NCBI RefSeq assembly: GCF_013167455.1
Contig: NZ_CP038328.1
Length of the DNA stretch: 64,000 bases
From: Escherichia coli O157:H7
GTDB lineage: Bacteria > Pseudomonadota > Gammaproteobacteria > Enterobacterales > Enterobacteriaceae
Direction: 5' to 3' (one strand)
A program made the position numbers. Each line of letters begins with the position of its first letter. Positions within the stretch are counted from its first letter, which is position 1. Below, piece after piece: positions 21,001-24,000 of this stretch.

Positions 21001-24000
21001 TTGATCCAGCGCTCCGCACGGATGGCCACGCTGCCTGTCTGGAACATGGAAACCAGCTCCACCGGGGACGGCGTGGTACTGTCGCCGCCCGGCTCAGACT
21101 GCATTTCCAGTGATGCCTCGCGGGACATATCCACTGCCACGCCGCCGTCATCCGCCAGATAAATATCCGGGGCATTCACCAGCACCAGCTGGTCACCCAC
21201 GTACTGGGAGACAATCACCGGCAGCCCCTGGAAGGAGCCACCCAGCAGGGTCATGTCCGGGTATTCCTTCTGACCCAGCGCATTTTTACGCATGGACAGT
21301 GCCAGGGCATTGGTGCTGGACATCAGCCAGACCGCACCGGTGGGCTGCAGGTTTGCTGCCACAAACTGTCCAAACGCAGCCTCGGCATCCGCATCCGGGT
21401 TACCGGTTGATGCCGTGCCCTTCACATCATGGGTGATGGACGCCGGGGAGACATCTGCCACTGCGGCTTTTTTCGGGTCCACAAAGTCTGTATCCAGACG
21501 CGCCACCACCGCTTCCGCCAGCGCATTACGGACCAGTGCATCAGCAGCCGGACTGGAAAAACGGATCAATTCTTCCGTCAGTACCGCAATGGCCGACACC
21601 TTCGCATGACTGAAGGTGATGGATTCAAAATCAAACTTCGTCAGGGGTTTTGCCTTACCCTCACCCACCCAGCCGGCAGCACCGCCGGACACCTGGGCGT
21701 GCACACGGATATTGAATGGCACCTGACGAAGTGCAGGGATCCCGCCCTGACCAAATCGCCCGATAATGGTCTGCGGACGCAGGTAATCAATAAAGTCCTG
21801 TGCGTATTCCTGATATTCAGACAGGCTGCCTGCCCACTGCGGATCCGTGGTGGTCCCCGCGCCCACTGCCGATTTCAGGACATGATGCAGACGACTGTCA
21901 TCCGGATACTGACGACGGGCCACTTCCAGGGCTTCAGATCGGACGCCTTTAGCCGCAGCCAGCGATTTGGCAAAGCGGGCGAAGCCAATCCCCTTATCCA
22001 GTTTCTGCTCCACACGGATCACCGGCGCAGAAGCCACCGCGGCCACATTCCCGTTACCGGCCTGTTTCACCGGCTGCGCCGTGGCGGCCTTACCGGCTTC
22101 CAGTTCACGCAGGCGCTTCAGGTGCGCATCCACCTGACGGATTTCCGCTGCGGTGTTGTCGTAATGCTCTTCCTCCTCCACATCCAGCGTGCGCCCTTCC
22201 TCTGCGGCTTTGGTCATGACCTCCTCAAGGGAGGCTGCCAGCGCTGCACGCTTGTTTTCAAAACTTTTAATCTGTTCGCCAATATTCATTATGGTCTTTT
22301 CCTTATGAAAAACGGTTGTTGACTGTGCCGCAGCGCCGGCAGAAGATGCGATTTTCACCACCGGTTTCCGGTTGCCGGACGCGGCAGAAAACGGGCGGTC
22401 GTAAGATTTAATGGTCCGGATGGTGCATTCCGCATTCGCGGGCACGGTGACGGCAGACACCTCCATCAGTTCCCAGCGCAGAAAATGCAGTCCGCCTCCG
22501 TCCAGAAAGGTGTATTCATGGGGACGGAAGCCCACGGACAGCCCCCTGACCAGCCCGGTCTTAATGGCCGCCCAGACCTCATCCAGCCGGGCAGCCAGTT
22601 GCGACGGCATATCCGGTACGGGCTTCACCAGTGTTGCCGTGATTTCCAGCCCTTCGCTGACCCGGCGCACCGTACACTGCCCCACCGGGCGGGAATGGTC
22701 ATGCTGCCAGAGAAACGGGATCGCACTGCCAAACTCCGCGCCCTCCGGCTCCAGGATGTCACCATCCCGATCCGGAGAAGGCGTTGACGCAATCCCGGTG
22801 ATCACCCGTTCATCCTCACTGAAGGATTTCACCGTCAGCAGGGAACAGGCCCGTTTAAGAGTCACATCAGCCTCCTGAAAATAAAAAAACCGCCGCAGCG
22901 GTTCATGATGGTTACAGTGTGAACAGGGTTATATGAAAAAAACCGCATATTCTTTCTTTTTCGGTTCCGGGTTAAGGGACATCAGGGAGACCGCATTGAA
23001 CAGCGCCATCAGCGGGTCAATTTTTCCCCGTCCACTGGCCTGTTTGGTGATAAGAATGGCGTTACCTTTAGGCTCCACCCGGGCATTGCCGACACACCAG
23101 GCCATCAGGGGCTGGTCACCATGCACCAGCACCCCTTCAGCCAGTTTGCGCTCGGTGGTTTTAATGGCCCCGCCCAGTTTCCAGCCCTGGCTTATCCCCA
23201 CCACAATTCCGTCGGGGATCCCGGCTTCCGCCAGTGAATCCAGAATCTGCCCCACCCCTGACGGGTCAATACCGATATGGTCCAGTAACTCAGCCTCATG
23301 AATGCGACGCACATATTCCGCCACTTCCGCCGTGTCATCCCCGACACGCCGGACAATGGTCATATCTCCACAGGCAACAAGATCCTGAAACCGGGACGCC
23401 TCGCTCTTCCGTCGGACCACCGCGGTTTCATGCGCCCAGGCATGGCCCCAGCCCAGCCATTCGCGGGTTTCCCTGTCACGGCCAATCACGTACATTCCCA
23501 GCAGATCATCCAGGCCCCCGCCGTCAATCCCCACCGTCACCACATCAGCGCGCTGCAGGATATCGTCCAGGCTGACGCGCCTGCCCTGCTGCTCCCAGAA
23601 ATCCGCACCCGCCCAGCGGTCAGAACGCAGGGCAAGACCAATTTCCACATTGGCATGTTTTGACATGAAGCCACGAAATGCTTCCTCACCAGCCTCCCGG
23701 GCTTTACGGTACTCCCGGTACAGAAAAGCCTCATCCACCGAATAACCGAGATTCGGGTTAACCATGGCGAGGTTTTCCATCAGCAGGTGAGCCCCGCTTT
23801 CCACCATTTCAGGAGGATGCTCAAAAATCACCGGCAGAAAGTGCGGATCATGAATTTTGCCGTCACGGACATCCCGGGCGTACTGCAGTTTCTGTCTGAA
23901 CACCCCGGCTGGCGGCTCATTCGACTGGGTGGTCGTATACACCACAAACCCTTCCGGGCGGGAGGCAAGGCCGCCTATGGCTTCACGTAACATGTCCTCC

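Follow-up and report, generated by a model that had tools for sequence, protein, structure and literature searches.

Late operons of lambdoid phages are turned on by the Q protein (PMC2629481; PMC7547250), and the pR'/tR' logic of this switch has been set out (PMC7547250). Q prevents the formation of terminator hairpins (PMC9388147; 10.1101/651190). The window analyzed here, a 64,000 bp stretch of contig NZ_CP038328.1, is an Sp6-like lambdoid prophage of Escherichia coli O157, and it carries a terminator-type hairpin in the gap between its terminase large subunit (TerL) and major capsid genes. Like λ tR' and the tR'-like terminator of the window itself, this is a G+C-rich, short-loop hairpin with a U tract directly behind it on the transcribed strand, and both types are expected to be bypassed by Q-loaded polymerase. 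The capsid-gap hairpin differs from them in location, being some 10 kb into the late operon whereas they closely follow the late promoter, and in that its U tract continues directly into a ribosome-binding site. Its stem is shorter and weaker than that of the tR'-like terminator at 32261-32279 (-10.2 versus -14.0 kcal/mol), so termination may be weak.

Other phages offer partial parallels. Late operons of HK97/HK022-type phages are said to contain moron terminators, which are likewise intrinsic, lie between two late genes and occupy a junction that has insertions in relatives; the capsid-gap hairpin, in contrast, is accompanied by neither a promoter nor an ORF, and only it and a ribosome-binding site are present in the 63 nt. 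The T-phi terminator of T7 and the terminator after gene VIII of the filamentous phages also adjoin a major coat gene and are the precedent for a stoichiometric role, but they lie downstream of that gene and enrich coat transcripts, whereas a terminator upstream of the coat gene, as here, would deplete them; moreover, T7 and f1 transcription is not Q-antiterminated. The moron concept has been described (PMC2629481). For Tn916, a terminator-insulator that works together with antitermination has been demonstrated (PMC11658703); there, a terminator blocks outside or ill-timed transcription while the element's own antitermination lets programmed transcription pass. The same logic may apply here, although Tn916 is another kind of element with another host and antitermination mechanism, and the function demonstrated experimentally there is inferred for the capsid-gap hairpin. 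Finally, Term-seq shows that the intrinsic terminators of HnrS and StxS, also in late regions of O157 lambdoid prophages, give RNA 3' ends in lysogens (10.1101/2025.11.27.690950; PMC7547250); each of those terminators closes a dedicated short transcript with a promoter of its own, and their sequences are unrelated to the capsid-gap hairpin.

The terL-capsid gap and its hairpin

The terL stop codon and the capsid start codon are separated by exactly 63 nt, and the hairpin, its U tract and the capsid Shine-Dalgarno sequence all lie inside this gap (Table 1). The flanking genes had been called terminase and capsid from sequence alone, and the Pfam matches bear this out; phage records annotate the capsid gene product as major head protein/prohead protease, and it is 50% identical to a protein of the D3-like phage IME307.

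Table 1. Features of the late region discussed in the text (window coordinates)
Feature	Position	Strand	Basis or remark
Q antiterminator gene	33245..34066	-	Pfam PF03589 Antiterm, E = 7.8e-49; in Sakai Sp6 annotated as antitermination protein Q
Late-promoter leader RNA and strong terminator (presumed tR')	32261..32473	-	Rfam, terminator score
Terminase small subunit gene (terS)	24587..25150	-	Pfam PF03592, annotation
Terminase large subunit gene (TerL), 553 aa	22929..24590	-	Pfam PF03354 + PF20441, annotation
TerL stop codon TAA	22931-22929	-	
Terminator-type hairpin GAACCGC-UGCG-GCGGUUU	22887..22904	- (coding)	Sequence, folding, scan
5' arm GAACCGC	22904-22898	-	
Loop UGCG, 4 nt	22897-22894	-	
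3' arm GCGGUUU	22893-22887	-	
U tract UUUUUUU A UUUU (U7 A U4)	22878..22889	-	First 2-3 U are stem base
Shine-Dalgarno AGGAGG of capsid gene	22871..22876	-	5 nt 5' of GTG start
Capsid GTG start	22865-22863	-	
Prohead protease-major capsid fusion gene, 645 aa, GTG start	20928..22865	-	Pfam PF04586 + PF05065
Sibling hairpin CCCGC-CGCGU-GCGGG + UUUUUUAUUAUCAGGAGG	16647..16661	-	Precedes major tail gene (ATG 16624)
Sibling hairpin GAGAACCGC-UGAG-GCGGUUUUU, then GGAG	15187..15208	-	Precedes tape-measure gene (ATG 15166)

The hairpin lies 24 nt past the TerL TAA, untranslated and in the sense orientation, and consists of seven base pairs, of which four are G-C and one is G-U. The U tract is directly 3' of the stem; its U7 run (22889-22883) shares two or three bases with the stem, and the tail past a 6-bp stem is UUUUU A UUUU. 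The sequence-only reading had the sequence of this element right, but the loop it wrote as "cgca" is the plus-strand form of UGCG and the U7 run that it placed after the stem is partly inside it. The calculated energy is -8.9 kcal/mol with the 6-bp stem and reaches the -10.2 kcal/mol given above when the seventh, G-U pair is included. The hairpin is the sole stable element in the ensemble centroid of a 96-nt region, and this region folds no better than its shuffles (z = -0.79), which gives no sign of a larger structured RNA there. In d'Aubenton-Carafa-type scoring of both strands of the whole window (128 kb of sequence) the hairpin ranks 4th among 194 candidates, with a U-tract tail score (5.58) that is the highest among the top candidates, and its terminator score was reached in 0 of 1000 dinucleotide-shuffled versions of the gap. 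It is also listed by a consensus scan that was, overall, unenriched (23 sites versus 17.1 expected). The element is unidirectional, as no T tract follows the hairpin on the plus strand. An internal capsid promoter and a moron were both considered for the gap and rejected; no ORF was found within the 63 nt, and the scan reports no promoter-like site in or near them.

Late operon context and conservation

The late genes of the window are all on the minus strand, with the Q gene, a leader RNA and a tR'-like terminator upstream, which is the arrangement of a Q-antiterminated late operon. The leader is an Rfam STnc100 match (32307-32473, 101.6 bits), and the presumed tR' (GGCUGCGC-AUG-GCGCGGCC followed by U8) has the second-ranked terminator score. 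The only σ70-like match between this terminator and the capsid-gap hairpin is a weak 9-of-12 consensus at 26420-26392; no convincing upstream promoter that would need insulation was found in the region scanned, where promoter-like matches number 6 versus 11.0 expected. Nine terminator candidates with scores above zero lie on the coding strand of the late operon, eight of them intergenic, and one lies on the other strand. Two of the hairpins resemble that of the capsid gap in their placement. One begins 37 nt ahead of the start codon of the major tail gene, an ORF with a λ-like tail tube protein and Ig domains, and the other begins 38 nt ahead of the tape-measure gene, which was recognized by its tape-measure Pfam matches; the core stem of the latter (AACCGC/GCGGUU, -10.3 kcal/mol) is identical to that of the capsid-gap hairpin. 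The three hairpins thus share a common geometry, starting at -37 to -39, and putative terminators of this type are repeated at set distances ahead of major structural genes in this prophage family. The family, which includes Shiga-toxin phages, occurs in about one in four complete E. coli genomes; the terL-capsid junction was found in 1250 of 5426 such genomes, with up to seven copies per genome, and in 93 phage records.

The hairpins of 76 E. coli loci differ from one another at just one base of the loop and at one A that is replaced by G, which retains pairing as G-U. Variation is confined to the loop, a single wobble-compatible base of the stem and the flanking sequence, and changes otherwise avoid the stem. 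The U run varies from T6 to T8, and the Shine-Dalgarno AGGAGG is invariant. In an exact-anchor comparison of the E. coli copies, TerL and capsid divergence are discordant.

An earlier search for related loci gave only near-identical E. coli copies, and more diverse relatives were gathered by a search seeded with a Pseudomonas protein. This distant set is made up of D3-like Pseudomonas phages and metagenomic contigs whose capsid proteins are 37-54% identical, and it contains 59 distinct upstream regions. A terminator-like hairpin is found upstream of the capsid gene in 17 of the 59, compared with 5 of 1770 shuffles, an enrichment over chance of about 100-fold. These hairpins end 18-24 nt ahead of the capsid start and comprise eight different stems; five of seven stem pairs are changed on both sides, and 98% of cells are paired versus at most 59% when the partner is slid, but this covariation count is partly circular because its rows were selected for carrying a hairpin, and the unbiased figure is the 17 of 59 versus 5 of 1770. 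Among the rows so selected, structure is retained despite sequence change, and a structure acting at the RNA level is therefore favored, since stem sequences differ among lineages while pairing persists. The hairpin in the TerL-capsid gap that was noticed from sequence alone is thus real, and the comparative data make it a conserved element. It is also dispensable, as about 70% of the related lineages have no hairpin at the capsid junction; many of the relatives have a hairpin-free gap of 10-40 nt.

The junction itself is variable in these relatives, at least ten lineages having either insertions of 233-948 nt or unrelated TerL types there. In one (L141) the hairpin separates a 435-nt insertion from the capsid gene, and another (L111) has it ahead of an inserted ORF; a 139-nt insert in a third (L093) has a tRNA-like look, but ARAGORN calls no tRNA in it. 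The Pseudomonas relative IME307 has an annotated Q gene and several late-operon hairpins, and similar hairpins also lie before or after other genes of this phage. A unit of hairpin, U tract and Shine-Dalgarno sequence is conserved across genera before the capsid gene.

Probable role and alternatives

The hairpin is a real yet ordinary feature of an operon presumably transcribed by a terminator-resistant polymerase. We lean, at somewhat better than even confidence, toward the interpretation that it is an intrinsic terminator inside a Q-antiterminated late operon that stops ordinary polymerase, is bypassed by Q-modified polymerase and acts as an insulator. When an unmodified RNA polymerase leaves terL, its exit channel would accommodate the folding G+C-rich hairpin over the U tract, causing release of the transcript a few bases short of the capsid gene's strong ribosome-binding site. 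Polymerase that had taken up Q at the late promoter, some 10 kb upstream, would be unable to form terminator hairpins and would read through. The hairpin would be an insulator because ordinary polymerase is stopped while Q-loaded polymerase passes; capsid expression would in this way be made Q-dependent, as would that of the major tail and tape-measure genes by the sibling hairpins, and in the lysogen stray transcription would be blocked while lytic expression was little changed. The amounts of terminase and capsid would then come mainly from translation, given the strong AGGAGG site, and not from the terminator. Such an insulator would help explain both the silence of the strongly translated capsid and tail genes in lysogens and the strict Q dependence of late expression. 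The capsid-gap hairpin opens no new mechanism, but it is a documented conserved case of a probable intrinsic terminator within a Q-antiterminated late operon.

Two features, the constant spacing from the start codon and the U-rich stretch beside the ribosome-binding site, are also compatible with a function in the translation of the capsid gene or in mRNA stability. The hairpin might thus be a positive element for capsid expression, whether as an S1-binding U-tract translational enhancer, a protective processed 5' end or a shield of the ribosome-binding site, and the placement of hairpin, U tract and strong Shine-Dalgarno sequence at -37 to -39 before three genes, two of which encode the most abundant virion proteins, agrees with this, as does the constant end point 18-24 nt before the capsid start in relatives. 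We nevertheless consider it unlikely. A shield was rejected, as in silico deletion or disruption of the hairpin leaves the predicted accessibility of the capsid ribosome-binding site unaltered (0.421 versus 0.410-0.413), and at the other two sites the predicted accessibility shifts little and in opposite directions. The tape measure is a low-copy protein, the similar hairpins of IME307 also lie before or after other genes, many relatives manage with their short, hairpin-free gaps, and a U tract abutting a G+C-rich stem is specifically the signature of a terminator. Somewhat less probable still is a dual-purpose cis-element that terminates unmodified polymerase and, in read-through transcripts, boosts the downstream gene, its U tract binding S1 or its hairpin protecting a processed 5' end; if it were true, such an element would make the yield of abundant virion proteins independent of the upstream terminase genes. 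It had also been suggested that the hairpin sets the stoichiometry between packaging and structural transcripts, in effect as a partial terminator (attenuator) during lytic growth. The anatomy is indeed that of a terminator, its modest stem energy is compatible with partial termination, and the terminators beside the coat genes of T7 and f1 do set transcript ratios. However, a virion needs hundreds of capsid subunits and few terminase molecules, and a stoichiometric role is unlikely because a terminator at this place would lower capsid relative to terminase, which is the wrong direction. In addition, both Q and a tR'-like terminator are located upstream of the operon, and Q-loaded polymerase ignores terminator hairpins (PMC9388147; 10.1101/651190; PMC7547250). 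The late-gene output of λ is reportedly set by translation initiation. Nor is the hairpin specific to the packaging/structural boundary, because the same geometry precedes the tape-measure gene and the gene of another very abundant product, the major tail protein. The hairpin therefore probably does not set the packaging:capsid transcript ratio, and an attenuator is improbable.

The same low probability is given to a functionless scar. It could be a terminator left behind when an inserted gene (moron) was lost, or it could have arisen as a side effect of recombination at a mosaic junction. The terL-capsid junction is a hot spot for insertions and unrelated TerL types, the hairpins of L141 and L111 lie next to inserted sequence, and TerL and capsid divergence are discordant in E. 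coli. To this extent the suggestion that the hairpin marks a module junction is partly borne out, but nothing ties the hairpin itself to exchange, as cause or as mark. Against a scar, the stem persists at a constant position in different genera although its sequence changes, its occurrence is far above chance, changes within E. coli spare the stem, and the gap is devoid of an ORF and of any reported promoter-like site. Least probable, and very much so, is that terL mRNA gives rise, at its 3' end, to a small trans-acting Hfq-binding RNA like other multicopy prophage sRNAs of EHEC. The element is indeed multicopy in EHEC, late regions of EHEC prophages encode terminator-ended sRNAs, and there is a weak full-length match to isrK, a family of prophage sRNAs. 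That match, the best sub-threshold one at a site where no Rfam family reaches its gathering score, has only 15.2 bits against the required 50 (E = 0.36) and rests on generic hairpin and U-tail features, and no promoter-like site is nearby. HnrS (EcOnc10-12), a 66-nt multicopy EHEC prophage sRNA that lies in the late region upstream of the packaging genes (10.1101/2025.11.27.690950), is unrelated in sequence, and a query derived from published primers has no match in the window at up to three mismatches. For the Sp6 junction of strain Sakai (1564486-1564548), both Hfq peaks listed for Sp6, EcOnc33 and EcOnc54 (Tree et al. 2014), are more than 7 kb away.

Two further identities were rejected. 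Frameshifting within the final terL codons, at their T7 run, is not expected to involve the hairpin, which at about 30 nt is too far away; a -1 shift at this run would add only a few residues. A protein-binding palindrome or a cos or pac site acting at the DNA level is disfavored by the different stems with preserved pairing among lineages. By analogy with HNH-associated terminases, cos presumably lies upstream of terS beside an annotated HNH gene.

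The terL-capsid junction

All late genes of the window are read on the minus strand, and by Pfam terS precedes terL and the portal gene follows the capsid gene, whose 645-aa product joins a prohead protease to an HK97-type major capsid protein (PF04586, PF05065). The sequence-only reading placed a terminator-like hairpin in the terL-capsid gap, and the sequence and the Pfam assignments of both genes agree with it in all but two details. The stem is as described, while the loop "cgca" is the plus-strand reading of coding-strand UGCG; the U7 run is present, although it is not separate from the stem, to which its first 2-3 bases belong. 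This is how an intrinsic terminator is built: on the sense strand, in untranslated RNA, a G+C-rich stem runs straight into a U tract. The hairpin has an energy of -8.9 kcal/mol with 6 bp and -10.2 kcal/mol with 7 bp (including a G-U pair); in the ensemble centroid for the 96 nt around the site it is the sole element kept, and the rest of that region folds no better than shuffles (z = -0.79).

Coordinates of features of the late region and of related junctions
Feature	Coordinates	Strand	Remarks
terL	22929-24590	minus	stop TAA 22931-22929; PF03354 + PF20441, large terminase
Hairpin GAACCGC-UGCG-GCGGUUU	22904-22887	minus	24 nt past terL TAA
U tract UUUUUUU A UUUU	22889-22878	minus	continues from stem base
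Shine-Dalgarno AGGAGG	22876-22871	minus	one C separates it from U tract
Capsid gene start GTG	22865	minus	five bases after AGGAGG; opens 645-aa ORF
Sibling hairpin CCCGC-CGCGU-GCGGG + UUUUUUAUUAUCAGGAGG	16647-16661	minus	precedes major tail gene
Sibling hairpin GAGAACCGC-UGAG-GCGGUUUUU	15187-15208	minus	holds one GCGGTTTTTTT copy; then GGAG and tape-measure ATG
Terminator-like hairpin	10867-10882	minus (coding)	after minor tail gene L
Terminator-like hairpin	9185-9200	minus (coding)	after antirepressor gene
Terminator-like hairpin	8306-8322	minus (coding)	after tail gene K
Q antiterminator gene	33245-34066	minus	upstream of terL-capsid hairpin; PF03589, E = 7.8e-49
Terminator-like hairpin	33148-33163	minus	just past Q gene
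STnc100 match	32307-32473	minus	Rfam, 101.6 bits; in place of late-promoter leader RNA
Presumed tR' (terminator after late promoter pR')	32261-32279	minus	directly after STnc100 match; second-best terminator of window, -14.0 kcal/mol
Hairpin examples, phage IME307 (L166)	14765-14780, 21839-21858, 27445-27458, 30609-30626	coding
Viral-contig junctions with extra DNA or unrelated TerL	L093 1861-2000; L111, L118, L124-L127, L136-L142, L149-L152, L163

A simple consensus terminator scan lists this site and gives no overall enrichment in the window (23 sites vs 17.1 expected), so every hairpin with a T-rich tail, on both strands, was scored anew by a d'Aubenton-Carafa-type score (hairpin energy per length plus weighted T-tail). 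The terL-capsid hairpin ranks fourth of 194 candidates, outscored by a host terminator, the one following the late-promoter leader and that of potD, and none of 1000 dinucleotide shuffles of the gap matches its score. Positive-scoring candidates in the late operon number nine on the coding strand (eight of them intergenic) vs one on the opposite strand.

Over 44.4 kb the window matches Sp6 of E. coli O157:H7 Sakai at 99.2% identity; Sp6 is a lambda-like prophage whose integration site adjoins potC. Late operons of such phages are switched on through Q antitermination (PMC2629481; PMC7547250); the upstream Q gene, STnc100 match and presumed tR' therefore place the hairpin about 10 kb inside a Q-type late operon.

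Recurrence and conservation of the hairpin

Two sibling hairpins of like geometry precede the tape-measure and major tail genes of the same operon, and all three begin 37-39 nt before the start codon (37-38 nt for both siblings). The tape-measure sibling shares its core stem (AACCGC/GCGGUU) and U7 run with the terL-capsid hairpin, and the minus strand holds three occurrences of the 11-mer GCGGTTTTTTT vs 0.06 expected. The Pseudomonas phage IME307 shows a comparable arrangement: a Q gene is annotated, and many gaps of its late operon hold terminator-like hairpins on the coding strand, one of them directly 3' of the capsid gene. With the siblings and the other operon hairpins, this makes the terL-capsid hairpin one case of a recurrent operon design and not a special mark of the packaging/structural boundary.

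Both siblings are full units of hairpin, U tract and Shine-Dalgarno site. The third GCGGTTTTTTT copy lies within the final terL codons (22936-22968, minus) and is able to pair weakly with GGAACCG 16 nt upstream; this element and the main hairpin together give a full-length, sub-threshold match to isrK, a prophage sRNA family (15.2 bits, E = 0.36).

Copies of the 401-nt junction with ≥95% identity occur in 93 phage records, most of them from Stx1a-, Stx2a- and Stx2c-converting phages (2851, 1717 and YYZ-2008 among them), and in 1250 complete E. coli genomes out of 5426, where a single genome has as many as seven. Among 76 IMG/VR loci with the same capsid protein there are 11 distinct gap versions, in which the core stem and the Shine-Dalgarno site are invariant and the T run differs in length alone (T6 to T8). 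Upstream of the hairpin four positions vary; the loop (UGCG to UCCG) and the spacer ahead of the start codon have one variable position each, and the stem has one, where A becomes G opposite U and pairing is retained as G-U.

IME307, a D3-like phage, shares gene order with the window, its TerL is equal in length and its capsid fusion is 50% identical; its 59-nt gap reads GAGCCCGC-CUAGA-GCGGGCUU, then UCUCGUUUCUGGAG, then ATG. A viral-contig search seeded with this fusion gave 80 loci (49-99% identical to the seed), and, for 59 distinct upstream regions including the window's, the 75 nt preceding the start codon were searched for the top-scoring terminator-like hairpin. The scores are bimodal: 17 are above zero, one is at -7 and the remainder are below -24. 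In the positive group the hairpin 3' end lies 18-24 nt before the start codon, with three exceptions (viral-contig locus L101 and both copies of L106) whose start call is visibly too far downstream. The stems are varied (CCGC/GCGG, CCCGC/GCGGG, CCCCGC/GCGGGG, GCCCGC/GCGGGC, GCCCUGC/GCGGGGC, GCCCCGA/UCGGGGC, GGCCAC/GUGGCC and GGGCGUCC/GGGCGCCC), the structure being maintained through these changes of sequence. Among 1770 dinucleotide shuffles of the surveyed regions five score positive, which gives the real regions an enrichment of roughly 100-fold. When 15 representatives are aligned, the 7-bp helix has 98% of its cells paired and changes on both sides in five of its seven pairs, and sliding the partner column lowers pairing to ≤59%; this count is partly circular because the rows were selected for having the hairpin, and the unbiased measure is prevalence (17/59). 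About 70% of lineages have no hairpin, their gaps being 10-40 nt or containing insertions, which argues that the element is common among relatives, fixed in position where present, and dispensable.

Proposed role and alternatives

The terL-capsid hairpin is almost certainly a functional RNA structure of the intrinsic-terminator kind; its anatomy, conservation, context and recurrence are established here. The most economical reading, and on balance a probable one, is that it is an intrinsic terminator bypassed by Q-loaded polymerase and acting as an insulator. Two reports describe Q as narrowing and extending the RNA exit channel, which stops terminator hairpins from forming (PMC9388147; 10.1101/651190). 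During lytic growth the polymerase that matters in a lambdoid late operon is the Q-carrying one, which would ignore the hairpin, and polymerase without Q would be halted there. The hairpin would then be a fail-safe insulator that sits directly ahead of the very strong ribosome-binding site and makes capsid synthesis depend on Q, and its siblings would give the same insulation to major tail and tape-measure synthesis; termination, Q-dependent read-through and selective value are what we infer for it. Late-region intrinsic terminators of EHEC prophages yield RNA 3' ends in lysogens by Term-seq, as for the sRNAs HnrS and StxS (PMC7547250; 10.1101/2025.11.27.690950), and a terminator-insulator paired with element-encoded antitermination is described as demonstrated for Tn916 (PMC11658703). 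These precedents make the insulator reading plausible, and the logic proposed here is that of Tn916, with a different antitermination mechanism. Intrinsic terminators and the Q context are both already known, and the hairpin is a well-conserved new example.

A positive role in capsid expression, whether as an S1-binding U-tract enhancer or as a hairpin that protects a processed 5' end or shields the ribosome-binding site, would suit the fixed geometry before two abundant proteins. It seems somewhat unlikely, since the tape measure is a low-copy protein, predicted ribosome-binding-site accessibility is unchanged by in silico deletion or disruption of the hairpin, and a stem joined directly to a U tract is specifically a terminator trait. 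A dual unit, terminator and expression enhancer for the downstream gene, is unlikely. The maintained pairing and position square poorly with a functionless scar left by a lost moron (an extra gene unit inserted in the late operon), which makes a quite improbable origin. A 3'-derived Hfq-binding sRNA is very improbable indeed: HnrS has another sequence and does not occur in the window, the Hfq peaks of Sp6 are away from the junction, and the sole Rfam signal at the hairpin, isrK, falls far below its gathering score (15.2 bits vs 50).

The earlier suggestion that the hairpin sets the stoichiometry of packaging and structural transcripts is unlikely, because a terminator upstream of the capsid gene would cut capsid transcripts relative to terminase; this is the wrong direction, as virion assembly takes hundreds of capsid subunits and only a few terminase molecules. 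Moreover, the known terminators that tune coat-gene transcripts (T7 T-phi, f1 gene VIII) stand downstream of the coat gene, whereas this one is upstream, and little termination is expected when Q is present. Sampson et al. in 1988 reportedly found the relative output of lambda late genes to be determined by translation initiation, a further argument against a stoichiometric role; by analogy, the AGGAGG site of the capsid gene would fit that picture.

The proposal of a module junction holds in part. At least ten related lineages have 233-948 nt insertions or an unrelated TerL exactly at the terL-capsid boundary; in viral-contig locus L141 the hairpin has a 435-nt insertion on one side and the capsid gene on the other, and in L111 it stands ahead of an inserted ORF. 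Divergence of TerL and capsid is discordant among E. coli copies; in six loci, for instance, the final 400 nt of terL hold 24-31 differences and the opening 400 nt of the capsid gene at most seven. These comparisons show that the boundary is prone to recombination; they speak to the boundary and not to the hairpin as marker or cause of exchange. Relatives often have 139-948 nt of additional DNA at this junction, or a TerL of unrelated type; the insert of locus L093 is tRNA-like in look, and ARAGORN calls no tRNA in it.

Other features of the prophage

A P22-type antirepressor gene (Bro-N and P22_AR_C domains; 9220-10166) is inserted among the tail genes, accompanied by an antisense sar RNA (Rfam, 66.7 bits) and flanked by the terminator-like hairpins at 10867-10882 and 9185-9200 in a manner resembling an "ant moron"; EcOnc54, an Hfq peak listed for Sakai Sp6, lies near this gene, the correspondence being approximate. 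Two type III effector genes occupy 1785-8125 (minus), where tail-tip and fibre genes are expected: one encodes a HECT ligase that resembles SopA and carries pentapeptide repeats (Sakai espX7), the other a DUF4765 protein of 1133 aa (Sakai espN). The prophage itself is probably defective. A single 255-aa ORF (17031-17798, minus) carries a head completion domain and an HK97 gp10-like domain, in place of which Sakai Sp6 and phage 2851 are annotated with two separate genes; it may be a fusion or a small deletion. The C-terminal part of the portal gene (18585-19190) gives several offset BLAST matches to Sakai Sp6 (87-91% identity), which indicates tandem repeats of ~160 nt inside the long extension that the portal protein (859 aa) has at its C terminus. 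At 36097-36271 (minus) the early region of the prophage contains a toxin-antitoxin locus of the hok/sok type (Rfam sok, 114 bits).
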